Virus genome (UHGV): UHGV-0199997
Strand: one strand, 5' to 3'
DNA from: a virus
Length of the DNA stretch: 43,953 nucleotides
In this document: positions 4,423-43,845 of the stretch, one piece after another
Numbering within the stretch: the first letter of the stretch is position 1
Layout of the letters: each line of letters begins with the position of its first letter
Translations under genes and position numbers: made by a program
The notes under the pieces: generated by a model
Databases searched by the model: none
What the model saw: only the letters and a program-made list of their open reading frames with translations
Told to the model about the DNA's origin: nothing

Positions 4423-6968
4423 TCCTGCACTACACGCGAAACGCCGACGGCGCTTTCGACCGTACAAAACACGTCGGGATGCCGATGGAGTTTGTCGTTA
4501 ACCGTATTCCCGACGGCGTGCCTGCGCGAGTCTACCTCGGTGAGATTGGTGATGATACCGACGTAACCGACGACTTCGATGCGCTTAAAGACGAAGACGC
4601 GGTATACCACATTATTGAGGGTGCGGGTAGCGGGGCGCTTGGTGCCGTTAGTAAGGTGTTCGGTTTTATCCTTAAGCCAATCGCCAAGTTGTTCGGCCTG
4701 AACATGTCCGCTAACGCCAACTACACGGCGACTAACAATCAGACAACGTCACCGAACAACAGCCTTACCGACCGCTCAAACAAACCACGCCCTTACGAGC
4801 GCTCTTATGACATCTGCGGTACTGTGCAGACAATCCCTAACGACCTTATGCAGACGTATAAGGCGTTCAACTCAACTGGTGCTTTGCTGGAGTATTCGTA
4901 CTATGACGCGGGACGCGGGCATCTGCATATTGAGGCGGATGGCGTCACAGAAGGCGACACCCTTATAAGCGACATCACGGGTTCTTCTGTTGCCGTGTAC
5001 GCGCCGTATACTTCCCCGAACAACACCGCATCTCCCCAACTACAAATCGGCGACGTCATTGACCAGAAACTCTATGTGACATACTCCAACGACGACGTTG
5101 ACGGTATTGTACTGAAAGCACCAAACGACATCGGAGCTAACCCAAGCGCCGACGGCACCGCTAAACGTATTTCAAACACCGGCTACATTTATGACCCGTC
5201 AGGCGACTCTGCTTTTTCTGAGTTTCTTAGCGTCGGTGATGTCGCGGTGCTGAGCAACTTTGACGTTGCTGATGTCACTAACCTGAACGGCTCGTTTGAG
5301 GTTTTATACGTTGACGACTTCGAAGTAAGATTAGCCGTAAACGGTGCGTCTAACTGGACGGCGTTGACCAGCGGACAGACGTACACCCTAACAGAGCGTT
5401 CAGATACGTTTATTGGCCCGAGCAACACCTATGACGTATCCCTGACAGACTGGTATTACATGGTGCGCGGAGAGGTTGACCGTGTGCTCGCTAACGTAGC
5501 CGGGCAGAACGGCCTATACAAATACGACGGCGGCTATAACCGCACCAGCGTAACCGTAGAACTCCAGTACCAGATGATTGACTCTCAGCGCAACCCGTTG
5601 AGTGATATTTACACGGTACAGGCTACAATTACAGGCAACAATACGGATTACGTCGGTACGTCTATCTACGGACAGTTGCCGACAGCATCTCGTTTCCGCG
5701 CCCGTATGCGCCGTGTAACTAATTTTGACAAGGGCTACGACGGAACGGTAAGTGACGAGATAACCTTCATCAACCTGTACGGGCAGTCGCTGGACACAAC
5801 CCCACACTACGGCAACCGAACTACCGTGCATTGCGCACGTAAACAGACGCCGCGCGCCGCCAGTATCGACAACCCGGAACTACGCATGATTGCTACCGAG
5901 ATGTGCTACAAATACCTCGGCAATGGGGTGTTCGATACGGTAATGACTCCGAACACTCAGGCAGTGCAGTCGCTAATCCGACTGGCCCGAGACCCAGCGG
6001 TTGGTAATCTGAAACTGACAACGGTAAACATGGATAAGTTGCTTGCTGTGCAGGAAGAAATTGAGTCGTATTTCGGAAGTGAATTAGCGGGGCAATTCTG
6101 CTACACGTTCGACGACTACGACACCACGATGCAGGACATTGTTCAGACCATAGCGGAAGCCGTTTTCTGTACCGCATACCGTAAAGGCGCGGATATTATG
6201 TTGCGGTTTGACCGTCCGGTTGCGGGGCCTGAAATGGTGTTCACCCACCGCAGCAAAACTACCGGTACGGAGAAATGGACCCGCACGTTCAACGATTCTA
6301 CGACCTACGATAGCCTGTCGTTCTCGTACATCGACCCGGATACGAATGTACAGGAAACGATTTATATCCCGGAAGAACTCGGTGCAAATACGGAGGAGTA
6401 CGAATCGAAGGGCGTGCGCAACTACCAACAGGCATATTGGCTGGCGTGGCGTCGCTATCAGCGCAACACGTTAAGTAAAGTTGTCGTAGAGTTCGAAGCT
6501 ACGGAAGAAGGCGCTCTCGCTACCCCAGGCGGCGTAATTAGTGTAGTTAAAGGTTCACGTATTGCACCACAGGACGGCTATATTGTTGCCGTTAATGGGC
6601 TTACACTTACGTTATCCCAGCCTGTTACGTTTACTCCTGGCGATGACCACTCCATCATTCTTAAGAAGCGCGATGGCTCGGTGCAGAGTATCTCCGTTAT
6701 CAAAGGAAGCCACGACCGCGAAGTGATTATGCTCTCTGCGCCGGAGGAGGCAATCTACACAGGGAATAGTGCGCTAAAAACTGAGTTTTCATTCGGCAAC
6801 GAAGCAAGGCATAATGCTCAGAAGATAGTTGTTTCTTCAATCGACCCGGGCGACGACCGCACGGTCAAGATTACGGGCTACAACTATGATGACGGATTCT
6901 ATAAATACGACGGCGTCGCGCCATACGGCAGCGGTTTCTCCGACGGATTCAGCAATGGTTTTAATTAA
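4413..6968 (+). CDS. tail tip protein (gpI-like N-terminus fused to gpJ-like host-specificity region)
   Basis: 851-aa ORF; N-terminal ~100 aa (AVYHIIEGAGSGALGAVSKVFGFIL) resembles lambda gpI, the rest is a large beta-rich tip protein. The track start is TTG 4413; ATG 4476 or 4482 are alternatives. Confidence 0.6.
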   Translation: MAIILHYTRNADGAFDRTKHVGMPMEFVVNRIPDGVPARVYLGEIGDDTDVTDDFDALKDEDAVYHIIEGAGSGALGAVSKVFGFILKPIAKLFGLNMSANANYTATNNQTTSPNNSLTDRSNKPRPYERSYDICGTVQTIPNDLMQTYKAFNSTGALLEYSYYDAGRGHLHIEADGVTEGDTLISDITGSSVAVYAPYTSPNNTASPQLQIGDVIDQKLYVTYSNDDVDGIVLKAPNDIGANPSADGTAKRISNTGYIYDPSGDSAFSEFLSVGDVAVLSNFDVADVTNLNGSFEVLYVDDFEVRLAVNGASNWTALTSGQTYTLTERSDTFIGPSNTYDVSLTDWYYMVRGEVDRVLANVAGQNGLYKYDGGYNRTSVTVELQYQMIDSQRNPLSDIYTVQATITGNNTDYVGTSIYGQLPTASRFRARMRRVTNFDKGYDGTVSDEITFINLYGQSLDTTPHYGNRTTVHCARKQTPRAASIDNPELRMIATEMCYKYLGNGVFDTVMTPNTQAVQSLIRLARDPAVGNLKLTTVNMDKLLAVQEEIESYFGSELAGQFCYTFDDYDTTMQDIVQTIAEAVFCTAYRKGADIMLRFDRPVAGPEMVFTHRSKTTGTEKWTRTFNDSTTYDSLSFSYIDPDTNVQETIYIPEELGANTEEYESKGVRNYQQAYWLAWRRYQRNTLSKVVVEFEATEEGALATPGGVISVVKGSRIAPQDGYIVAVNGLTLTLSQPVTFTPGDDHSIILKKRDGSVQSISVIKGSHDREVIMLSAPEEAIYTGNSALKTEFSFGNEARHNAQKIVVSSIDPGDDRTVKITGYNYDDGFYKYDGVAPYGSGFSDGFSNGFN

Positions 6969-9653: not shown

Positions 9654-11074
9654 TTCTTACCTCGTCTCTTCATGTAGTTAAGCAACTCTTCCTGCACCGA
9701 TTTCTTCTCATCAGTACGCGCGGCAACAACCTCGTCAAGAGTGTCTTTGGCAACGATATGATAGAGGAACACCGGGCGCTCGTGGCCTGCCTGTTTCTGG
9801 CGGACTGGGCCTATGCGCTCGACAACCTGCAAATAGTGCTCAAGGTTCCACCCTGGCGAAATAAACGCCAGATGATGCCCGCCGTCCTGTAAATTGAGGC
9901 CGTGGCCCGCCGACGCAGGATGCACGCATAAGATTTCGATTTCGCCGCGGTTCCACGCTTCCATCTGCTTATTACCCTTAGCGCCTTTGGCGAACGCCTG
10001 CGCCTGCGGGAATCGTTTAAGGATGCGCTCCAGTTCATGCTTGAACTGATAGGCGACTAGCAACGGTGCACCCTGCAACTCTTCCACAATGGACTCCAGT
10101 GCGTCCAGTTTCGTGTCGTGCACTTTCTCCCAGTCTTTCGTTGCTTCGCCGTCCGGCCCTGACACATACACGGCACCGGATGCAATCTGAAGGCACTTAG
10201 ATGTCTTCGCCGCCGCGTTAGCCGCTTCAACTTCCCCGCTCTCCAGCTCCGCGAATAGCTTCTCCTCCATATCGATGTACGCCTGACGTGCTTTCTTCGG
10301 CAGGTCGATTTCAACCGGTACGATAATCGGCGCTTCACATCCGAACCACTCGGCGGCGTCAATCGTGAGACTAATGTCCTTCATCTTCTGGTGAATCTCG
10401 GTATCCGCCCCCGGGCGGGCATGGTACTCGCGTGCCATCGCCGACTTACCTTTCTGTACCGAGTTAAACCAGCGGTCTGTGAATGCCGTGTATGAAGACC
10501 CCAAGCGCTCTCCTGCGTCGATAAACCAGTTCTGGCCCCACAAGTCCTTGAGGCCGTTCGGTGATGGTGTGCCAGTCAGGTTGATAAAACGCTTAACCTT
10601 ACCGAAAGCAACCTTGCTAAGAGCCTTTGCGCGCTTGCTTCCACCTGAACGGCTGCGGAACGATTTAAGCTTCGTGCTTTCATCGGCAACGATAACCGTA
10701 AAAGGCCAGTCGTCTTTGCCGTAGTAGTCAATCAGCCACTCGATAACTTCGTAGTTTGTGCACACCACGTTAGCGTCTGACTCCAGTGCCGCGATGCGAC
10801 GCCTCTCGCTACCTGTTGCATCTACGACACTCAGGCATGGAAATCGCCATTTCTCTTGTTCTGCGGGCCATGTGCCGGATGCGACGCGCAACGGAGCGAG
10901 GATTAACACGCGGTCGTCGTCCGTAAGCTGCCCGTTGCGGAACAGTCTGTTTAACGTCCACAGTACGCTGCCAGTCTTCCCGGCACCCATGCTTGCCCAT
11001 ATGTTGCAGCGATGGTGCCGCAACATGAACGAGGTAATGAGCTTCTGGTACTCGCGCCTTTGAAACTTACTCAT
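9650..11074 (-). CDS. SNF2/DEAD-like superfamily II helicase
   Basis: Walker A in ASMGAGKTGS, DEAH-type box in IVADESTKLK, C-terminal helicase motifs. Confidence 0.85.
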   Translation of the reverse strand: MSKFQRREYQKLITSFMLRHHRCNIWASMGAGKTGSVLWTLNRLFRNGQLTDDDRVLILAPLRVASGTWPAEQEKWRFPCLSVVDATGSERRRIAALESDANVVCTNYEVIEWLIDYYGKDDWPFTVIVADESTKLKSFRSRSGGSKRAKALSKVAFGKVKRFINLTGTPSPNGLKDLWGQNWFIDAGERLGSSYTAFTDRWFNSVQKGKSAMAREYHARPGADTEIHQKMKDISLTIDAAEWFGCEAPIIVPVEIDLPKKARQAYIDMEEKLFAELESGEVEAANAAAKTSKCLQIASGAVYVSGPDGEATKDWEKVHDTKLDALESIVEELQGAPLLVAYQFKHELERILKRFPQAQAFAKGAKGNKQMEAWNRGEIEILCVHPASAGHGLNLQDGGHHLAFISPGWNLEHYLQVVERIGPVRQKQAGHERPVFLYHIVAKDTLDEVVAARTDEKKSVQEELLNYMKRRGKK

Positions 11075-11903
11075 TTACAGCCCCCATGAACGCCTTTATA
11101 AATTCAGCGGCTACTTGCGGGACGATGGCATTGCCGTAACCGCGCAATCGTCCCACTCTGGCGGGTATCCCATTAGCCAGCGGGAATGTGCCGGGTTCAA
11201 CTGGCCGGAACTTTCCATCCCTGCATCCGAGCCAGTCAGCATCCGACCAGAAGCTGCGATTCGGATTGCCCCCACGAGGTAGCATTGATTGTGCAGATTG
11301 TTCGGGTCTCTTTTTGTTTCCGCCTCGCTGTAGCTGCCGTGACGCGAATTCTGAACCGTCGGCGTCCCCCATGCCGCTTTCAGTCCCTGCTCTGTTGAGT
11401 AGTCCAGCCTGTCGAATGTTCTGTCCTTCCCGTCCTTGCGAATCACTGTCTCTCCGCTCCCTTTGTGATCGTTCGCTGTCGGTGTCGGCCAGTTGGTACG
11501 CACCAAAGAAGAGTCGTTCTCTTTTATGCGGAGCGCCGACGCTACAAGCTGGGAGTACGGCAAACCCGACGGCGTAGTCTTCTCCTTCCAGGTGAGTTTG
11601 TAAATCGCACATCCACGATTTTGCAATTGCTGGCGCAACCTGTTCCCCAAAGAGGACTGGAGGGTGGCACTCGCTGATGAGGTCGAGGAAGACTGGCGCG
11701 AGGTGTCTCGGGTCGAACTGTCCGAGTTGTTTTCCTGCCGCGCTAAACGGTTGGCAAGGCGGGCTTCCCGTCCAGAGAGGCGTATCTTCCGAAACTCCCG
11801 CAAGTCTGAGCGCGAGAGGCCAGCCGCCGATGCCAGCGAAAAAAATGACACTGGGTGAACCCGTCAAGGTCTTCTGGCTTAACTTCGGTAATGCTTCTTT
11901 CAT
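11067..11903 (-). CDS. DNA (cytosine-5)-methyltransferase, frame-disrupted
   Basis: This frame carries motif I (FFAGIGGW), motif IV (PPCQPFSAAGK), ENV-like (FGEQV), motif VIII (PHKRERLFF) and motif X (GYGNAIVPQV); the target-recognition region and motif IX lie in an overlapping frame (11111-11851) and the N-terminus in a third frame (11743-11991). Confidence 0.65.
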   Translation of the reverse strand: MKEALPKLSQKTLTGSPSVIFFAGIGGWPLALRLAGVSEDTPLWTGSPPCQPFSAAGKQLGQFDPRHLAPVFLDLISECHPPVLFGEQVAPAIAKSWMCDLQTHLEGEDYAVGFAVLPACSVGAPHKRERLFFGAYQLADTDSERSQRERRDSDSQGREGQNIRQAGLLNRAGTESGMGDADGSEFASRQLQRGGNKKRPEQSAQSMLPRGGNPNRSFWSDADWLGCRDGKFRPVEPGTFPLANGIPARVGRLRGYGNAIVPQVAAEFIKAFMGAVNE

Positions 11904-12209: not shown

Positions 12210-12494
12210 CTAACTATAGTAGTTCGCTATTAGGTCGTCAACCTGTTTGAACGAACCAACGACAAAAACATTTGCACCACGTTTGCGCATCCGCTCGTGC
12301 TCTCGTAACTGGTGCGGGTCAGGCTTCGTGCTTTCGTCTTTCTTAACCTCGACGAACCAGATGATGCCGCCGGGGAGAATTACCAGCAGGTCAGGAGCGC
12401 CGGAGCGCCCCTCGTAGGAAAGTTTACGAACGAGGCCACCAATGGCCTCGAATCGCTCTTTTGCGTATTTCTGTATTTTTCCTTCCGGGGTCAC
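12210..12494 (-). CDS. VRR-NUC domain nuclease
   Basis: 94-aa protein with the PD-(D/E)xK-like pattern GAPDLLVIL...FVEVKK...Q typical of VRR-NUC. Confidence 0.65.
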   Translation of the reverse strand: MTPEGKIQKYAKERFEAIGGLVRKLSYEGRSGAPDLLVILPGGIIWFVEVKKDESTKPDPHQLREHERMRKRGANVFVVGSFKQVDDLIANYYS

Positions 12495-15761: not shown

Positions 15762-15852
15762 CTTGATTTCTCGCTTTTAAGTTTCGTTTACTCCGGGAAC
15801 TGCCCGGCCAGTGGTTAGAAATATAATAGCTAACTATTCAGGTGTCAACACT

Positions 15853-17412: not shown

Positions 17413-17883
17413 TTATTCTTCTTCGAAATACTTGTTCTTGATTGCTGTCAAGCGTTCCAGGTATTCAGCCAGGTCTTCGTCTTTAATCGCAGCAATCTTC
17501 ATCTTCTTGCCGGTGAACTCTTCCAGCAGTTCATCTGAATCATCGCACGCGGCATCGCTAGGACCTTCGTTAATAGCATCGTCGATAGCCTGAATCTGGT
17601 CACGCAGAGACTGGTAATCTACCTCTTCCTTCTCTTCTTCCGGCTCTGGCGTTGGTTCCTCTACTTTAGCTTTACGCGGCTTGCGTTTCGGCTTCTCTTC
17701 TTCTGCCGGTTTAGTGTCGACGATGTCTTCACCTTCGACCGGGATTTCTTTTGTTGCTTCTTTTACAACATTAGGCTCAATTGTTGCGGTTTCAGCAACG
17801 ACAACTTGTTTCGCACTGTTCGCAGCAATCAGTTCATGTGCAACTACGAAACGTTCCAGTAATACTAAGAATTTCTCTAACAT
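17413..17883 (-). CDS. acidic hypothetical protein
   Basis: 156 aa with a Glu/Pro/Lys-rich low-complexity centre; RBS GAGGAGAG; first gene of the leftward operon, divergent from the XRE gene. Confidence 0.5.
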   Translation of the reverse strand: MLEKFLVLLERFVVAHELIAANSAKQVVVAETATIEPNVVKEATKEIPVEGEDIVDTKPAEEEKPKRKPRKAKVEEPTPEPEEEKEEVDYQSLRDQIQAIDDAINEGPSDAACDDSDELLEEFTGKKMKIAAIKDEDLAEYLERLTAIKNKYFEEE

Positions 17884-17916
17884 TTGTTTCTCTCCTCTCG
17901 TTTGGTATGCACTAAC

Positions 17917-17935
17917 TATAATAGCTAACTATTCA
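17917..17935 (+). promoter_or_regulatory. palindromic operator-like element in a divergent promoter region
   Basis: TATAATAGCTAACTATTCA contains AATAG-N4-CTATT; a near copy lies at 15821-15840; sits between the divergent genes at 17883 (-) and 18009 (+). Confidence 0.35.
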
Positions 17936-18008
17936 TTATGTCAATGGGCTTTTCTAAAATAATTAATATGGTACTATTCACATATCAACTGACTAAGGAG
18001 TAATTGAC

Positions 18009-18224
18009 ATGCAACCATCTGAACTAGGCATCCGTGTAGAACAACGCCGTAAAGAACTCGGTATCTCCCAGCGCCGTCTGGCGGTCCTGGCCGGTGTTTC
18101 CCAGGGCGCGATTAACCAGCTGGCACTTGGAGTAACTCAGGACGTCCGCCCGGCGACGCTGTTCAAGCTGGCGGAAGTGCTGGAAGTAGACGCCAAGTGG
18201 CTGGCGTTCGGTGAAGGGGCTTAA
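18009..18224 (+). CDS. XRE-family HTH transcriptional regulator (Cro/CI-like)
   Basis: 71 aa; HTH core ISQRRLAVLAGVSQGAINQL. Confidence 0.8.
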   Translation: MQPSELGIRVEQRRKELGISQRRLAVLAGVSQGAINQLALGVTQDVRPATLFKLAEVLEVDAKWLAFGEGA

Positions 18225-18238
18225 CGCCCCTTTCTTTT
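18216..18238 (+). terminator. rho-independent terminator
   Basis: GGGGC-TTAAC-GCCCC hairpin followed by TTTCTTTT; the XRE stop codon lies in the loop. Confidence 0.6.
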
Positions 18239-18264
18239 CATTCCTCTACGGCTTTCTCGCATAA

Positions 18265-18375
18265 TCACTCGAGAAACGAAACAAGACCGCAGATTAAATC
18301 CTCAGAAACAATAAATTGGCCGTCATCTTCCTGTTCGCACTGCTTCAACTCAGCAATTAACTGTTCAGCGTTCAT
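18265..18375 (-). CDS. small ORF (36 aa), not in the ORF track
   Basis: MNAEQLIAELKQCEQEDDGQFIVSEDLICGLVSFLE; ATGA overlap with the stop of the 753-aa replication gene. Confidence 0.3.
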   Translation of the reverse strand: MNAEQLIAELKQCEQEDDGQFIVSEDLICGLVSFLE

Positions 18376-20633
18376 TCCAAATCCTCATCTGTCACCACCA
18401 GCATTTCATTCGGTTCGTATATTGTCTTCGGAATTTTGTTGTCGTTTATACCCCACGGCAGCCGGTACTGCTTAGGTATAGGTCTGTTGTTGCCATCCAG
18501 ACCTGAGACGATAACCCCAGCCTCGTGCATCTCTTCCAGTTTCTTTCTAAGGTCGTTATTGGCGTTAATTGGTACGCCATAACTATCTTCTTTCGCGGCT
18601 TTGACGATAGCCGACATAGAGAACCCTCGCTTATCGTCGCCCTGCTCCTGCAATTTACCCAATGCGTAAATAACCGTAGCCTCTTTGGTGTCCAGTTTCT
18701 CGAACTGGCCTACCTTTTCTTTAACGGCTTCCTTCTGTTCGTCGGTCATACCTTCTACTTTCTTCACGAAGACAGAGAAGGCGTTAAAGTTAACAAAGAC
18801 ATCGATGTGCGGGTTTCCTGCGTCAAAATCGCGGACATCATCACTACTGTACCCTTCCGGAAGACCCATGAAGTTGTGAGTTGGCTCTTTCTTTTTCGGT
18901 GGCTCCGCTATCTGAATCTTCTGTATTACAAATCCTCTGGCTTTCTGCCGTTCTCCGTTTCGGTTCTTTATGTGATACAGGTTTATCCCTAAGTTATTGT
19001 CGTTGTCAGGCTTATGCAGGAACATCCCGTTATCGATGGAGTTGTGAAAGTCACTTCCACCCTTCGGCATCATGCCGTTTTCCGACGGTACTGTTTCGTC
19101 GATGTTTTTAGTCGGGTGCACCATAGCACCTACCGCGGCGTTAAGCGTCGACGCTATTTCGTTAAGTGCCTGCGCCGCTTCTTTCATTGACCTGTTGTCG
19201 TTTTCGTCAAAGCCAGGTATGCAAGTTTGCAGGGTATCAAACGTAACCTTTACAATTTTCTCTTCACCGGCAACACGGCGCATCATTCTCACCACCTGAC
19301 GTCGCCATGCTTCGTCGAGTAAGTTACATCCCTCCGCAACACAATCGATAATGTGCAAGCGGTCCAAGTTATCGCCGAGGGCAATCTGCAAAGATTTTTT
19401 ATGTCGCTCGAACGACCGCACACCTTCACCCGCAAAAATAAACGCATGACCTTCCGCTACCTCAGCCCCGCCGAACGCATATCTTTTTTCGGCAGCAATA
19501 GCGGCGTCAATCGCCATACTAAATGTTGACTTACCGGTATGCGACTTTGCACAAATGTAGAATGATTCGTTAGTCTGCATAAGACCATCTACGACGGAGT
19601 ATGCAGGTTCTTTTTCTAATTCCGGCTCGTCTTCAAGGTCTTCCAGCGTGCAAGTTACAGGTTCCTCGTTCTCTGTGCGGTGCAGTTCTTCAATCTCTTC
19701 ATCAGGTAAATCAGGCAGAGCCGCGCGAATGCTGTTAACGCTGATAGGTTGCTTGTCTACGTTAAGCTCGTCAGGTAGACCACACATACGCAGGGCCAAA
19801 TGCTGCCTACGGTTAAGCTCGGTGCAAGCGCCGTTGTTTGTATGCTGGCAGACAAAGCGCACTTCTTTACCGTCTAGCATGATGCTGGTGGAGCCTTTGC
19901 CTGTGTGCAGATGTTCGTTAGGGCATGGCACTTCGTACCCGCGCCCGGAAGATAAAGCATCAAGCCCAAGCTCGGCTTCGCAGAAATGCGCTATATCTGC
20001 GTTAAGCCCATGCTCATCGGCAGCAAGTGTCTTGGCTTCGCGTTTACGCAACCCCATCTCTTCGGCTTTCTTGATGTACCGCTCGGCACGGATAACACGC
20101 CCCTCTGTAACCGTTATCTTCGACTCTTTATGCGGCAGGTAGATAAGGCGGTTGCCATCTTCTGTGCAGTGGTCACGCAGCGATTCATCTATTTCTAACT
20201 CTGCACAAATAGCCCGTTGCACCATCCACGCATCGTTAGAGTTAAACGGAGTGCGAGCCGGAACCAGAACGCGGAATGCGTAATCCCCGTTTTTACACGC
20301 GTGCTGATGCGATGCCGTTGTGTGCAGAATATTGAAGAACGGCGCGTTCTTGAATTTGCGTGTCAGGTCGCGGTACTGAGTACGGTTGAGATGGTCGAAG
20401 TCGAACTTAACCACACTGTCTTCCAGAATCGCATTCTTACGGCGACCGCCAACAGGAGCAATAGCCTTCTGCTTAATCTTAGCCGCGTCGTATTCTTCCT
20501 TAGTCCACGACGGGTCCACGGACAAACGCTTCGATGTATCGCAGACGTACTCTACAAACTGCTCCAGCGGCATTTCACGTGCTACAGGGTTTTTATCGAA
20601 TGTGTTACGCAGCGTTGCAAAAACAATATTCAT
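18372..20633 (-). CDS. replication protein, primase/helicase-like P-loop NTPase
   Basis: 753 aa; Walker A in AKSHTGKST followed by a RecA-like region; Cys/His-rich segment (CPNEH...CQHTNNGAC) in the N-terminal half. Confidence 0.65.
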   Translation of the reverse strand: MNIVFATLRNTFDKNPVAREMPLEQFVEYVCDTSKRLSVDPSWTKEEYDAAKIKQKAIAPVGGRRKNAILEDSVVKFDFDHLNRTQYRDLTRKFKNAPFFNILHTTASHQHACKNGDYAFRVLVPARTPFNSNDAWMVQRAICAELEIDESLRDHCTEDGNRLIYLPHKESKITVTEGRVIRAERYIKKAEEMGLRKREAKTLAADEHGLNADIAHFCEAELGLDALSSGRGYEVPCPNEHLHTGKGSTSIMLDGKEVRFVCQHTNNGACTELNRRQHLALRMCGLPDELNVDKQPISVNSIRAALPDLPDEEIEELHRTENEEPVTCTLEDLEDEPELEKEPAYSVVDGLMQTNESFYICAKSHTGKSTFSMAIDAAIAAEKRYAFGGAEVAEGHAFIFAGEGVRSFERHKKSLQIALGDNLDRLHIIDCVAEGCNLLDEAWRRQVVRMMRRVAGEEKIVKVTFDTLQTCIPGFDENDNRSMKEAAQALNEIASTLNAAVGAMVHPTKNIDETVPSENGMMPKGGSDFHNSIDNGMFLHKPDNDNNLGINLYHIKNRNGERQKARGFVIQKIQIAEPPKKKEPTHNFMGLPEGYSSDDVRDFDAGNPHIDVFVNFNAFSVFVKKVEGMTDEQKEAVKEKVGQFEKLDTKEATVIYALGKLQEQGDDKRGFSMSAIVKAAKEDSYGVPINANNDLRKKLEEMHEAGVIVSGLDGNNRPIPKQYRLPWGINDNKIPKTIYEPNEMLVVTDEDLE

Positions 20634-20826: not shown

Positions 20827-21039
20827 TTATTTATCGCCTGCAAACCACGCGTGCGCAGAATCATAGAAACGACATTTACTTAACATGTCTACCGGCATCT
20901 TAATAATGCGCGTCGGTTCCGACAAATGATTAGGTTTACATATTTCTGCATAGAATCCGCTGTCGGTAATTTCTGACGCAAACTTAAACCAGTATTTAAC
21001 TTTACCGTTCTCAAAGTAACAACCCATACGCCCAATCAT
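20827..21039 (-). CDS. hypothetical protein (70 aa)
   Basis: ORF with ATGA coupling to the upstream HTH gene. Confidence 0.45.
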   Translation of the reverse strand: MIGRMGCYFENGKVKYWFKFASEITDSGFYAEICKPNHLSEPTRIIKMPVDMLSKCRFYDSAHAWFAGDK

Positions 21040-21218
21040 TTCACGTTCTCCTTAATCCACGCTTCAACTTTATTACGGTCAAATGTTCCAGGTAAACGGC
21101 GGCCCATAACCTTAATACAACAGTCGGGGAATTTACCACTGCGTAACCAGTTATTAATTGTCTGACGTGTCACCCCAATACGTTCTGCTACTTCATTCTG
21201 GGTCATGTAATGTTGCAT
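21036..21218 (-). CDS. small HTH DNA-binding protein (AlpA/excisionase-like fold)
   Basis: MTQNEVAERIGVTRQTINNWLRSGKFP helix-turn-helix; ATG 21218 with RBS AGGAG; divergent from the early rightward operon. The track start is 21290. Confidence 0.55.
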   Translation of the reverse strand: MQHYMTQNEVAERIGVTRQTINNWLRSGKFPDCCIKVMGRRLPGTFDRNKVEAWIKENVK

Positions 21219-21325: not shown

Positions 21326-21470
21326 TTGACTTTTACTAAGAAATATGCTAAGCTCGTCCTGAGCTTGTGAAGTATGAACAAGCGACCGCGGTGCGCGGCA
21401 GGCGAAACGAGCACGTCTCGACGTGTGGAGTGAGTCTCGCTGGCGCATTCGGAAGGGCCATAGTCTATTG
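21326..21470 (+). promoter_or_regulatory. promoter (TTGACT-N17-TAAGCT) plus conserved leader element, copy 1
   Basis: -35 at 21326-21331 and -10 at 21349-21354; 34-nt block identical to copy 2 at 21358-21391 containing a perfect hairpin GCTTGT-N9-ACAAGC; second conserved block at 21448-21470. Confidence 0.5.
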
Positions 21471-21541
21471 TTATTCCCGCCTAAGTATCTAAGTTACTGA
21501 TTTGACGTAGGTTAGAACCGCAAGCTCACTCACTCACTCTT

Positions 21542-21573
21542 GGTGCCTTCGGCACCCCGTTCGTTTCGTTTCG
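21542..21573 (+). terminator. hairpin with U-rich tail (weak terminator) closing the copy 1 leader
   Basis: GGTGCC-TTC-GGCACC followed by CCGTTCGTTTCGTTTCG. Confidence 0.35.
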
Positions 21574-21623: not shown

Positions 21624-21659
21624 TTGCACACCCCAATATAATAGGATACTATTCACTTA
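21624..21659 (+). promoter_or_regulatory. conserved promoter element (TTGCAC-N17-TACTATTCACTTA)
   Basis: One of at least five near-identical ~36-bp elements, each 25-40 bp upstream of an RBS and start codon; this one precedes the gene at 21687. Confidence 0.5.
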
Positions 21660-21686
21660 TCGAAACGAGACAGAGGAGTGAGGGTT

Positions 21687-23150: not shown

Positions 23151-23186
23151 TTGCACGCTAAGATAGAATAGGCTACTATTCACTTA
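23151..23186 (+). promoter_or_regulatory. conserved promoter element (TTGCAC-N17-TACTATTCACTTA)
   Basis: Same element family as 21624-21659; precedes RBS GAGAGGAGAG and ATG 23211. Confidence 0.5.
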
Positions 23187-23210
23187 CACAAACGAGAGGA
23201 GAGACAGAAT

Positions 23211-26700: not shown

Positions 26701-26721
26701 TCTATTTTCTATAATGACTAG

Positions 26722-26750
26722 TTGACTATTATCTACGACCCTACTATATT
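26722..26750 (+). promoter_or_regulatory. sigma70-like promoter (TTGACT-N17-TATATT)
   Basis: Good -35 and -10 hexamers with 17-bp spacing, immediately after the terminator and ~35 bp upstream of the gene at 26785. Confidence 0.55.
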
Positions 26751-26784
26751 TACTCCATCGACAACGAGAACGGAGTAGAGAGAA

Positions 26785-26973
26785 ATGATGACTAAGATTA
26801 AGCATACCGATAACTGGGGCGATTTCATGGAGATAGAGAAGTGCCGGGACGGGACATTACTTATAACTTGTACAGACGGAGATAGCGACGAATCGGTTAG
26901 TGTTAACGTGAGTATGGGTGATTTTATGATTATTGTTGAGCAAGTGGCGTCTTTTTACGGAGATGATAAATGA
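26785..26973 (+). CDS. hypothetical protein (62 aa)
   Basis: RBS GGAGTAGAGAG before the ATG; acidic small protein. Confidence 0.5.
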   Translation: MMTKIKHTDNWGDFMEIEKCRDGTLLITCTDGDSDESVSVNVSMGDFMIIVEQVASFYGDDK

Positions 26974-31902: not shown

Positions 31903-32088
31903 TTAACAAGCTGATGTTGTCCAGTAATCACCATAATCATTTACGTAAAATTTCTTCATACCAGACCACCCGAAGTTCTTACATGTCTTTTTGAATCGCT
32001 TCATTACCTGTGTTCTTGTCAGCATCAAAACACTACCGTTTCCATCTCTTGCGAAATCTCCGCCGGACTTATATGGTTTCTTTTCCAC
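31903..32088 (-). CDS. small AT-rich moron protein (61 aa)
   Basis: Minus-strand ORF between portal and head-morphogenesis genes with its own upstream promoter element and downstream terminator; GTG start with RBS AGGGGG; clearly AT-richer than its flanks. Confidence 0.5.
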   Translation of the reverse strand: MEKKPYKSGGDFARDGNGSVLMLTRTQVMKRFKKTCKNFGWSGMKKFYVNDYGDYWTTSAC

Positions 32089-32109: not shown

Positions 32110-32145
32110 TAACCGAATAGTACCCTATTATATTGGTGTCTGCAA
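32110..32145 (-). promoter_or_regulatory. conserved promoter element (TTGCAG-N17-TACTATTC), minus orientation
   Basis: Member of the ~36-bp element family; drives the 61-aa minus-strand gene. Confidence 0.5.
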
Positions 32146-33697: not shown

Positions 33698-33727
33698 AAG
33701 GCCCCTTATGGGGCCTTAATTTTATTT
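33698..33727. terminator. bidirectional rho-independent terminator
   Basis: AAGGCCCC-TTAT-GGGGCCTT followed by AATTTTATTT; shared by the convergent genes 33233-33694 (+) and 33722-34243 (-). Confidence 0.65.
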
Positions 33728-34243
33728 AAATCGCGCTGGCATTAGCACCATAAATGCAGTGTTTGAAAATGATATTTTGCATCCTCTGATTTGGTCCTGG
33801 AAATCGAAACGAGCGATTTCATTTTTGTATGCCTTAGAAATCTTGTGCGCGTCCGCCAAGTAGCGCAGGGTGAACCCTATGCTGTCAACCGCCCCCGGCG
33901 TGATGTGCGCCACACGTCTCCAGTCAGGAAACCTTCCGTCTACAACATCTACCGGAAGTGTACATATAAGCGCACGACTATCGTCATAGAAAGAAACGCT
34001 GCTGTTGTCGTGGTCTACTTCCGCGTAGTTAAATTTAGAAGGCTCTCTCCCTTTGATGTCTATGAGAACCGCATTCTCAACGTTTGTCTTAACGTTGTCG
34101 CAGAACAATCTATGACCGTCCGTAGACACTATCAATCCCTCCGGGTCTATGTAAAAAGCATTCAAATAATAGCGCACATCATTTTTAGCTCTGCATATTT
34201 TTGCCCCTACATACGCAGGGAAAGTAATTACTGTAGTAGCCAT
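33722..34243 (-). CDS. DnaN (beta sliding clamp)-like mini-protein
   Basis: 173 aa; VSTDGHRLF matches the conserved DnaN TDGHRL motif and the C-terminus FMVLMPARF matches the DnaN YVVMPMRL tail; own promoter element upstream; RBS GAGGAGGAG. Confidence 0.55.
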   Translation of the reverse strand: MATTVITFPAYVGAKICRAKNDVRYYLNAFYIDPEGLIVSTDGHRLFCDNVKTNVENAVLIDIKGREPSKFNYAEVDHDNSSVSFYDDSRALICTLPVDVVDGRFPDWRRVAHITPGAVDSIGFTLRYLADAHKISKAYKNEIARFDFQDQIRGCKISFSNTAFMVLMPARFK

Positions 34244-34264
34244 TTTAACTCCTCCTCGTTTCGA

Positions 34265-34300
34265 TAACTGAATAGTACCCTATTATGTTGGGGTGTGCAA
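34265..34300 (-). promoter_or_regulatory. conserved promoter element (TTGCAC-N17-TACTATTCAGTTA), minus orientation
   Basis: Member of the element family; immediately upstream of the DnaN-like gene. Confidence 0.5.
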
Positions 34301-34366
34301 ACTATTTATTAGCCTATTCCAGTTATTCCGCTCAATTGTAAATGTTGGAATAAACTATTCGAATAG

Positions 34367-34509
34367 TTGACTTTTCACTAAAAATATGCTAAGCTCCACC
34401 TGAGCTTGTGAAGTATGAACAAGCGACCGCGGCGCGGGCAGGTAACGGAGCGGGACGTAAGTCCTGAGTGTAGTTACGCTGACGCGTTCGGAAGGGCCAT
34501 ACTCTATTG
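34367..34509 (+). promoter_or_regulatory. promoter (TTGACT-N17-TAAGCT) plus conserved leader element, copy 2
   Basis: -35 at 34367-34372 and -10 at 34390-34395; conserved blocks at 34399-34432 and 34487-34509 are identical or near-identical to copy 1. Confidence 0.5.
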
Positions 34510-34575
34510 CTTGTGTAAAAAGTAACTGGTTTACTGAGATTACGCCGTTTCTATGTTTAAATGATAAGGACTAGC

Positions 34576-34602
34576 GCCCCGCTTTATGGCGGGGCTTTAC
34601 TT
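34576..34602 (+). terminator. hairpin terminator between the copy 2 leader and the spanin gene
   Basis: GCCCCGC-TTTATG-GCGGGGC followed by TTTACTT, about 20 nt upstream of the spanin RBS. Confidence 0.45.
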
Positions 34603-35901: not shown

Positions 35902-36951
35902 ATGGCAATTACCACTATCGGCGATATCGTAACTAGCAACATCCCGGTCTTGGCGTCTTATATGACCGAGGACCCGGTAGAGAAAACCGCGTTCTTCCAG
36001 TCCGGTATTCTGACCCCGACTCCGTACGCCGCAGAGATTGCTCGTGGCCCTTCCAACGTCGCCAACATTCCTTTCTGGAAAGCGATTGATGCCTCTATCG
36101 AGCCTAACTATTCGAACGACGTGTATCAGGACATCGCTACCCCGCGTAACGTGCAGACCGGTGAGATGATGGCCCGCGTTGCGTACCTGAACGAAGGTTT
36201 CGGCCAGGCGGACCTGACTGTCGAACTGACCAGTCAGAATCCGCTGCAATCCGTGGCTTCTCGTCTGGATAACTTCTGGCAGCGCCAGGCACAACGCCGT
36301 CTGATTGCTACCGCGCTGGGTCTGTACAACGACAACGTAGCCGCTACTGATGCTTACCACGAGAAGGATGACATGGTTATCGACGTGTCCGCTACTCTGG
36401 GCTTCGACGCGGGTGCATTCATCGACGCTACCCAGACTATGGGCGACGCTCTGATGGGCAACGGTGGTGAAGTGCTGGGCGCCATTGCTATGCACAGCTT
36501 CGTTTATGCGCAGGCGCGTAAGCAGCAGCTTATTGACTTCATCAAAGACGCCGACAACGACACCCTGTTTGCCACCTACCAGGGCTACCGCGTGATTGTT
36601 GACGACAGCATGACCGTGGTCGGCACTGGTCCAAGCCGTAAGTTCATCTCCATCATCTTCGGCAACGGCGCTATCGGTTATGGCGAAGGCAACCCGTCCA
36701 ACCCGCTGGAATATGAGCGCGAAGCGTCTCGCGGTAACGGCGGTGGCATTGAAACCCTGTGGACCCGTAAGACCTGGCTGTTGCACCCGCTGGGTTACAG
36801 CTTCACCAGCGCAGTAATCACTGGCAACGGCACCGAGACTACCCCGCGCTCTGCTTCATGGCAGGACCTGGCGAACGCCTCCAACTGGAACCGTGTTGTT
36901 GACCGTAAGCACGTACCGATTGCCTTCCTGGTAACTGGTGTCGGTGCTTAA
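35902..36951 (+). CDS. major capsid protein
   Basis: 349-aa protein after the scaffold; codon usage typical of highly expressed genes; followed by a strong terminator. Confidence 0.8.
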   Translation: MAITTIGDIVTSNIPVLASYMTEDPVEKTAFFQSGILTPTPYAAEIARGPSNVANIPFWKAIDASIEPNYSNDVYQDIATPRNVQTGEMMARVAYLNEGFGQADLTVELTSQNPLQSVASRLDNFWQRQAQRRLIATALGLYNDNVAATDAYHEKDDMVIDVSATLGFDAGAFIDATQTMGDALMGNGGEVLGAIAMHSFVYAQARKQQLIDFIKDADNDTLFATYQGYRVIVDDSMTVVGTGPSRKFISIIFGNGAIGYGEGNPSNPLEYEREASRGNGGGIETLWTRKTWLLHPLGYSFTSAVITGNGTETTPRSASWQDLANASNWNRVVDRKHVPIAFLVTGVGA

Positions 36952-43809: not shown

Positions 43810-43845
43810 TAAGTGAATAGTACCCTATTATATTGGGGCGCGCAA
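43810..43845 (-). promoter_or_regulatory. conserved promoter element (TTGCGC-N17-TACTATTCACTTA), minus orientation
   Basis: Member of the element family; drives the four-gene minus-strand cassette. Confidence 0.5.

Follow-up and report, generated by a model that had tools for sequence, protein, structure and literature searches.

A 434-Cro-like gene and a genome-wide family of promoter dyads as a candidate lytic timing device in a Kagunavirus

Does a small repressor-like gene in a phage that lacks an integrase serve lysogeny, or does it time the lytic cycle? The question arises at a divergent regulatory region in UHGV virus genome UHGV-0199997, a 43,953-nt stretch of DNA (the window) that we analysed at its full length, where an XRE-type helix-turn-helix (HTH) gene, hereafter the XRE gene, faces a leftward operon across an intergenic region that carries a palindrome. 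An earlier note on this DNA proposed that this gene and a second small HTH gene probably control the early-to-middle switch of a virulent phage. The XRE protein is most like phage 434 Cro by sequence and predicted fold, and the palindrome at its side belongs to a family of dyads that lie in promoters around the genome. In the reading that we favour, with the balance of probability only modestly on its side, a Cro-like XRE dimer turns down early promoters genome-wide and regulates itself, serving as a timing device for lytic growth and not as a lysogeny device.

A 4.5-kb query around the locus matched 437 phage records, the best of them Escherichia phages of the genus Kagunavirus (Guernseyvirinae) at 92–93% identity. 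The complete genome of phage Schulenburg is collinear with the window from end to end and circularly permuted, with joints at window 28561 (Schulenburg 1) and at window 43953/1 (Schulenburg 15426/15427). Judged by this alignment, the window represents an entire Kagunavirus genome in circularly permuted form, and there is therefore no outside sequence in which an integrase could be hidden; the check beyond the window that the earlier note had suggested is moot. Its statement that integrase and partition genes are missing extends to the complete genome: profile matches to window open reading frames (ORFs) of at least 150 aa include no integrase, recombinase or partition protein, and none is present in a curated relative. 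A search of 5,426 complete E. coli genomes found no prophage copy of the 8.4-kb regulatory and replication region, and XRE relatives above about 50% identity were not found in 185,579 species-representative genomes. The sole match of the 8.4-kb region is an exact stretch of 35 nt (window 18172–18206, in the 3′ part of the XRE gene) that corresponds to a type I-E CRISPR spacer of E. coli 2017.09.02CC (NZ_AP025214.2, 4038605–4038639), beside cas2e, cas1e and iap; the 35 nt include flanking coincidences. Related phages are described as virulent (PMC7203180, PMC11990801), and one paper says that a repressor gene is not present (PMC12919940), a statement that shows how little attention the XRE gene has received. 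Because the genome is complete without integrase or partition genes and no prophage copies were found, a lytic-cycle regulatory role fits much better than lysogeny, as had been proposed.

The protein itself points the same way. Sequence and structural model place it in the Cro/C1 XRE family, and the description of the gene as Cro/CI-like HTH is borne out. The match to Pfam HTH_3 spans residues 11–65 (E 2.3e-12; 47.2 bits against a cut-off of 23), and the PHROG matches are repressor/regulator families. A phmmer search against PDB returned 434 Cro, itself 71 aa long, as the top match (E 5.4e-7, residues 6–68). A single-sequence AlphaFold model (pLDDT 84) has helices at residues 5–17, 21–28, 32–39, 48–57 and 62–66, and Foldseek aligned it best in PDB with 2cro, the structure of 434 Cro (TM 0.73/0.79, 40% identity); HipB, HigA and the C-proteins C.AhdI and C.BclI were weaker PDB matches. 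The 71 residues form one domain, and the absence of a C-terminal oligomerisation or autocleavage domain marks a Cro-type rather than a CI-type protein. Homologues are found in 563 phage records, at 95–100% identity in Kagunavirus, about 52% in Jerseyvirus and 41–43% in Cornellvirus VSiA, PhiSTP2 and Tsm2, and Guernseyvirinae, a subfamily of virulent siphoviruses, have the gene in their core set. Curated relatives label it "transcriptional regulator Cro" and annotate the terminator; the label "Cro/repressor" is also in use. Its G+C content of 59%, compared with 51% for the genome and 43–49% for the adjoining genes, suggests a different origin or a codon bias, despite its core status in the subfamily.

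The XRE gene is monocistronic, lying between its own promoter and its own terminator with both neighbours on the opposite strand, and AAGGAG 8 nt 5′ of its ATG provides a good ribosome-binding site. The terminator already attributed to the gene is a hairpin of -15.3 kcal/mol that is kept in all 37 kagunavirus loci (IMG/VR), even where the downstream sequence varies. The reverse strand of the hairpin has no U-tract, and the terminator should therefore stop XRE transcripts only. Among kagunaviruses, a mosaic junction lies directly after the T-tract.

Two promoters are predicted in the 125-bp control region, P_left and P_xre (Table 1). P_left scores 11/12 in a promoter scan, and the same two hexamers recur across Kagunavirus, Jerseyvirus, Cornellvirus VSiA and PhiSTP2. 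Transcription is predicted to start near 17908 on the minus strand and near 17984 on the plus strand. The core of the palindrome that the earlier note had placed at 17917–17935 is the dyad AATAGCTAACTATT at 17920–17933. It is contained in one of two 17-nt copies of a single element, 45 bp apart: TAATAGCTAACTATTCA (17919–35) lies in the P_left spacer and TAATATGGTACTATTCA (17964–80) over the P_xre -10, each with a dyad of the form AATAG-N4-CTATT within it, so that two dyads bracket the XRE promoter region. The second dyad carries a G-to-T change, fixed in 37 of 37 loci, that weakens one half-site and also creates the TG of the extended -10. Relatives retain this TG with a variable position -13 (G, A or C), and the Jerseyvirus homologue of P_xre reads TTGCGT-17-TACTAT. 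The 125-bp region contains no ORF and only these two dyads, and the gene opposite XRE encodes a 156-aa protein of unknown function (phrog_3127) in place of a cI-type repressor; by its sequence, the locus is not a lambdoid immunity region, with neither cI nor a tripartite operator. The region is nearly invariant in the 37 kagunavirus loci, and the gene to its left is swapped: the first-gene slot of P_left (17860–17905, and the same place in 36 relatives) holds at least six unrelated coding sequences, all of which abut an invariant leader and ribosome-binding site, CTCTCCTCTCGTTTGGTATG, at a sharp mosaic junction at the start codon.

The dyad is far from confined to this region. Allowing at most one mismatch, AATAG-N4-CTATT occurs 11 times in the window, compared with 1.16 expected and a maximum of four in 100 shuffles, and the 17-mer element occurs nine times against 0.17 expected. 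Ranked by over-representation among 5-N-5 inverted repeats, the dyad comes first in each of three genomes (the window, Schulenburg and Jerseyvirus Shelanagig), ahead of terminator hairpins. The reported palindrome is consequently real and well above chance; as an operator private to this locus it does not hold up, being one of about 11 promoter dyads. All copies sit in sigma70-like promoter contexts; three geometries can be told apart, and the dyad occurs in either orientation with respect to transcription. Type A promoters (TTGCAC-17-TACTAT; sites 17965, 21640, 23167, 32116, 34271 and 43816) carry the dyad at about -19 to -6. In type B promoters (TTGACA-17/18-TATAGT or TATATT; sites 12218, 15825 and 17920) the dyad occupies the spacer at about -25 to -12, inverted with respect to transcription, and in type C (sites 26717 and 34362) it covers a TTGACT -35. 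The occurrence of one dyad in three geometries and both orientations means that it is not itself a promoter element, and its interpretation as a plain -10 or extended promoter element was rejected, given the inverted copies in spacers and the copies over -35 boxes. The operons that carry dyads are non-structural, comprising recombination and replication, small early, nucleotide-metabolism and accessory leftward genes inside the structural block; among the window copies, no dyad stands in sense orientation before terminase, capsid or tail genes.

The pattern of conservation looks like the footprint of a protein. In 67 type B sites from 37 kagunavirus genomes, substitutions were seen in 1 of 670 half-site cells and in 47 of 268 cells of the four central positions. 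Half-sites and centre alike belong to the promoter spacer, a stretch not read by sigma70 RNA polymerase. Invariant half-sites around a variable centre are, on this alignment, what an operator for a dimeric DNA-binding protein looks like. Serratia phage Tsm2 keeps the dyad together with the type A and type B geometries in different flanking sequence, and Cornellvirus VSiA has the dyad only in a degenerate form, AATA[CG]-N4-[CA]TAAT. At 36430–36465 of Jerseyvirus Shelanagig, the dyad sits at the centre of a perfect 34-bp palindrome, AACCTGTAATAATAG-TACT-CTATTATTACAGGTT, in an early rightward promoter. A leader motif that runs into the Shine-Dalgarno sequence, ATCGA(A/C)AACGAGA(G)GAG, is shared by dyad promoters at 21655–21675, 23182–23200, 26765–26785 and 34245–34268, and is also found in Tsm2 and Jerseyvirus.

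Part of this is already known: hundreds of genomes carry an annotation of the gene, and one paper has a table of the repeated 20-mers. Those 20-mers (TAATAGGGTACTATTCA...) appear as PHIRE-predicted "promoters" of Kagunavirus Golestan, and the two copies that precede the XRE homologue are among them; that list gives them as forward and backward promoters only, and does not discuss dyad symmetry, geometries, inversion or a link to a repressor (PMC7203180, Table S4). The additions made here, all of them in silico, are the layout of P_xre, an interpretation of the repeats as dyad operators placed in three kinds of promoter geometry, and their connection with the Cro-like gene.

How might these parts work together? 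Upon entry, P_left and the type A promoters would fire with host polymerase, P_left driving recombination and replication genes and P_xre the regulator only. Made from its own, weaker promoter, XRE protein would accumulate until its dimer occupied the candidate dyad operators. With a dyad occupied, the -10, spacer or -35 that it overlaps would be blocked, and early transcription would drop. The weakened AATAT half-site at P_xre would leave the regulator's own promoter to be shut at a higher XRE concentration, a form of negative autoregulation. The lytic role of Cro would in this way be extended to about 11 promoters around the genome, with no part in lysogeny.

We provisionally assign the dyads to the XRE protein because a homologue of 434 Cro is the textbook binder of a 14-bp dyad, 434 Cro acting as a dimer on sites of that length. 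The XRE protein would also be the natural candidate as the only recognisable DNA-binding regulator among the non-structural genes common to all four genomes, each from a different genus, that were compared. Several observations weigh against the assignment. The recognition helices differ despite the shared dyad (SQGAINQ in Kagunavirus, SQSLITH in Jerseyvirus, SQGMLNH in Tsm2), and across the helices, TQSAISH included, there is no clean tracking of the sites, VSiA differing in helix and dyad alike. In lambda and 434, Cro and CI bind the same operators with different helices. VSiA has an XRE gene, yet its dyad is degenerate, and the sites beside the XRE gene are the least canonical ones in Tsm2 and Jerseyvirus. 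The type A promoters resemble each other over about 50 bp, and part of the dyad repetition could reflect duplicated promoter cassettes. Finally, the coarse transcriptome of phage K1B4, the only one for a kagunavirus, puts a "specific DNA binding" gene beside the AAA helicase in a 42-gene middle class and an HTH-domain gene among four early genes (PMC12645636), where K1B4_004 is equated with XRE and K1B4_008 with the second small HTH protein, HTH_17, by gene order alone.

In a rival reading that we consider rather unlikely, the dyads are operators of another factor (HTH_17, another small phage protein or a host protein) and XRE acts locally at P_left and P_xre or has other targets. The early expression class in K1B4 and the degenerate sites beside the XRE gene favour it, as does the conservation of HTH_17: this protein is 82% identical between Kagunavirus and Jerseyvirus, which have an identical dyad, whereas XRE is only 52% identical and has a changed recognition helix. 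The second HTH gene is present and divergent from the early operon, as the earlier note had it, at a distance of about 460 bp; as a partner of the core XRE gene it fails, its homologue being found, among the genera compared, only in Kagunavirus and Jerseyvirus and not in Cornellvirus VSiA or Serratia phage Tsm2. Tsm2 has the dyad in the same promoter geometries, and HTH_17 therefore cannot explain the Tsm2 dyad, for which reason we gave HTH_17 less weight as the binder. Small HTH_17 and excisionase-like proteins, moreover, usually target direct repeats or single sites, not 14-bp dyads, and the comparison of four genera turned up no further conserved DNA-binding gene.

It is less probable again that no dedicated regulator is involved, the 17–20-mers being duplicated or homogenised cassettes of host-polymerase promoters and XRE acting elsewhere, for example in host promoter reprogramming or anti-defence. 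Such cassettes would account for the roughly 50 bp, -35 and leader included, that type A promoters share, for the listing of the 20-mers as promoters in Golestan, and for the right half of the dyad, CTAT, forming part of the type A -10. They account poorly for a dyad that is also inverted in type B spacers and laid over type C -35 boxes, for type B half-sites that stay invariant as centre and flanks vary at positions unread by RNA polymerase, and for the left half-site of type A, which lies at about -19 to -15, outside the -10.

We give little credence to a persistence device, that is, a residual immunity repressor for pseudolysogeny, plasmid-like carriage or superinfection exclusion. In its favour stands a PLSDB record, pC16EC0033-2 (CP088689.1, 1–44086), deposited as a circular 44,086-bp "plasmid" of a Korean E. 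coli blood isolate, which proves to be a whole Kagunavirus genome; in the regulatory region its identity to the window is 92%. No integrase or partition genes are annotated in it, and the record suggests carriage with the culture rather than integration (a carrier state, pseudolysogeny or contamination). It is the one such record among 72,556 plasmids, to be set beside none in the 5,426 E. coli chromosomes. The gene is often labelled "repressor" in databases, and a pre-existing repressor of every early promoter would be expected to block an incoming relative; a 71-aa protein with no C-terminal oligomerisation or cleavage domain, in a genome without integrase or partition genes whose relatives are reported to be virulent, argues the other way. 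An antitoxin-type (HigA/HipB-like) or restriction-modification C-protein-like controller of an adjacent module, to which the weaker PDB matches and a C5-cytosine methylase gene at 11067–11903 might point, is scarcely credible and was rejected on gene context: XRE is monocistronic with its own terminator, no toxin or restriction gene adjoins it, and the methylase lies 6 kb off in a mosaic segment missing from relatives.

Table 1 Positions of the control region, the dyads and neighbouring features in the window (strand left empty where none applies; promoters are predicted and dyads are candidate operators)
Feature	Position	Strand	Description
First leftward-operon gene	17413-17883	-	156 aa; phrog_3127, function unknown; conserved in the four genera compared
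Divergent control region	17884-18008		125 bp between first leftward gene and XRE gene; sequence read directly
P_left	17915-17944	-	TTGACA (17944-17939), 18-nt spacer, TATAGT (17920-17915); predicted near-consensus sigma70 promoter
Dyad O1 (type B)	17920-17933		AATAG-CTAA-CTATT; P_left spacer, about -25 to -12; palindromic element of the earlier note
Dyad O2 (type A)	17965-17978		AATAT-GGTA-CTATT; one half-site mismatch; overlaps P_xre -10
P_xre	17969-17977	+	Extended -10 TGgTACTAT; no recognisable -35; predicted promoter
XRE (434-Cro-like repressor) gene	18009-18224	+	71 aa; Pfam HTH_3; five-helix model; 563 phage records
XRE intrinsic terminator	18213-18241	+	Stem 18213-18233, then TTTCTTTTC; stop codon inside loop
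Helicase-primase operon	18265-20633	-	Helicase-primase 18372-20633 (AAA_25 domain) and overlapping 36-aa ORF 18265-18375
Second small HTH gene	21036-21218	-	60 aa; HTH_17, E 1.6e-8; PHROG 66 "excisionase and transcriptional regulator"
Type B dyad, 1 mismatch	12218-12231		Spacer of leftward promoter TTGACG-17-TATAGT
Type B dyad, identical to O1	15825-15838		Spacer of leftward promoter TTGACA-17-TATATT, which precedes SSB and polymerase genes
Type A dyad	21640-21653		Over -10 of rightward early promoter TTGCAC-17-TACTAT
Type A dyad, perfect 6-4-6	23167-23180		GAATAG-GCTA-CTATTC; over -10 of rightward promoter
Type C dyad-like, 1 mismatch	26717-26730		Over -35 of rightward promoter TTGACT-17-TATATT
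Type A dyad	32116-32129		Over -10 of leftward promoter for small gene 31903-32088
Type A dyad	34271-34284		Over -10 of leftward promoter for gene 33722-34243
Type C dyad-like, 1 mismatch	34362-34375		Over -35 (TTGACT) of second RNA-cassette promoter
Type A dyad	43816-43829		Over -10 of leftward promoter of phosphoesterase / PNKP-phosphatase / dNMP-kinase operon

The gene order around the locus refines what the divergent region may control. Divergence of the XRE gene from a leftward replication operon is correct as far as the first gene goes, at a distance of exactly 125 bp; the leftward operon has at least three predicted internal promoters of the same type (12218, 15825 and 17920). The helicase-primase operon is not controlled from the divergent region: it converges on the XRE gene instead, running toward the XRE terminator. 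In VSiA, PhiSTP2 and Tsm2, helicase-primase lies downstream of XRE on the same strand and XRE is the first gene of that operon; Kagunavirus and Jerseyvirus carry the helicase module on the strand opposite XRE, and their helicase-primases share only about 29% identity. A simple inversion of the helicase block relative to Cornellvirus was rejected on this low identity and on the mosaic junction past the XRE terminator, and replacement of the module at the terminator junction appears more likely from the sequences. The HTH_17 gene heads the helicase-primase operon. A cognate integrase, which an excisionase or recombination directionality factor would serve, is absent from the genome. Elsewhere in the window, a gene for a C5-cytosine DNA methylase (11067–11903, minus strand; Pfam DNA_methylase, E 5e-16) lies in a segment without a Schulenburg counterpart and is probably an anti-restriction accessory gene.

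The gap of about 460 bp between the HTH_17 gene and the rightward early operon (ATG at 21678) holds a cassette of promoter, structured RNA and terminator. This non-coding cassette is duplicated, at 21326–21560 and 34367–34600 on the plus strand, and consists of a TTGACT-17-TAAGCT promoter, a conserved GC-rich RNA of about 110 nt and an intrinsic terminator. The first copy, in the gap just described, precedes the early/lysis/terminase block; the second precedes the spanin/scaffold/capsid block. A covariance model of the RNA matches 21358–21471 and 34399–34510, followed by terminators at 21542–21556 and 34576–34595, and finds further copies in CP088689.1 (854–965 and 33023–33134), Jerseyvirus Shelanagig (5827–5924) and a further record, L001 (6312–6423 and 37910–38022), giving two copies per Kagunavirus and one in Jerseyvirus. 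The model found none in VSiA or Tsm2, a blastn search of the cassette against Jerseyvirus, VSiA and Tsm2 gave no match, and an Rfam scan of the window gave none either. Covariation over 13 diverse Kagunavirus and Jerseyvirus copies supports a long hairpin: 93.8% of cells are paired, compared with 81.5% in shuffles (0 of 500 reach the observed value) and 28–54% in slid controls. Invariant G-U pairs place the RNA on the plus strand; some annotators call tiny ORFs on the opposite strand over the cassette.

Since promoter, RNA and terminator sit ahead of late genes, the cassette may be an antitermination leader of the put-like or Q-site-like kind, and it may be a more novel feature of this genome than the XRE regulator. 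Joined to the dyads, it allows a wider proposal that we put forward only tentatively. Guernseyvirinae, which have no RNA polymerase or sigma factor of their own, might run their whole temporal programme with a Cro-like regulon of about 10 dyads in three geometries and with the duplicated cassette (21326–21560 and 34367–34600), which would gate the late blocks by antitermination, possibly RNA-driven as by the put RNAs of HK022.

The regulator is of an ordinary kind in a well-sampled phage group; the regulon-like distribution of its candidate sites can be tested and is of moderate interest. Both kagunaviruses and jerseyviruses are often put forward as phage-therapy agents and as small chassis for synthetic biology, and we know of no experimental study of their gene regulation. 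The labels "Cro", "repressor" and "excisionase" regularly prompt doubt as to whether such phages are strictly lytic, and hence safe. Here the regulator is assigned to the lytic programme by the missing integrase, the missing prophage copy and the Cro-sized protein. The map of promoters, about 11 candidate operators and terminator offers a starting point for rewiring or attenuating these phages. Should the regulon model prove right, cells pre-loaded with XRE protein would be expected to be immune to the phage.

Among known systems, 434 Cro is the closest: the two proteins share a length of 71 aa, a single five-helix XRE domain and about 40% identity, and 434 Cro is the top PDB match by sequence and by fold. 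As in 434, lambda and P22, the gene adjoins divergent early promoters that are overlapped by candidate 14-bp dyads, and the lambdoid order of cro followed by replication genes is seen in VSiA, PhiSTP2 and Tsm2, where XRE heads an operon continuing into helicase-primase. Unlike lambdoid cro, the Kagunavirus and Jerseyvirus gene is monocistronic and ends at its own terminator. In contrast to the lambdoid systems, a cI partner is also missing, as are PRM, N, cII and int; the candidate operators are single and lie in about 11 promoters round the genome rather than in a tripartite OR and OL, and the half-site is AATAG instead of the ACAA of the 434 Cro system.

The dispersal of the sites recalls mycobacteriophage L5, whose gp71 binds stoperators. 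These are asymmetric 13-mers that follow the direction of transcription, are found mostly inside transcription units and serve silencing in lysogeny. In L5, as in the model favoured here, one small repressor serves many dispersed sites, and its virulent relative D29 keeps such sites; unlike the stoperators, the candidate dyads lie at promoters, in a phage without lysogeny. Mu Ner and phi29 p4 are likewise small early phage DNA-binding proteins that turn down host-polymerase early promoters. Those proteins act at one or two control regions, and p4 has a different fold and activates a late promoter, whereas no evidence of activation by XRE was seen here.

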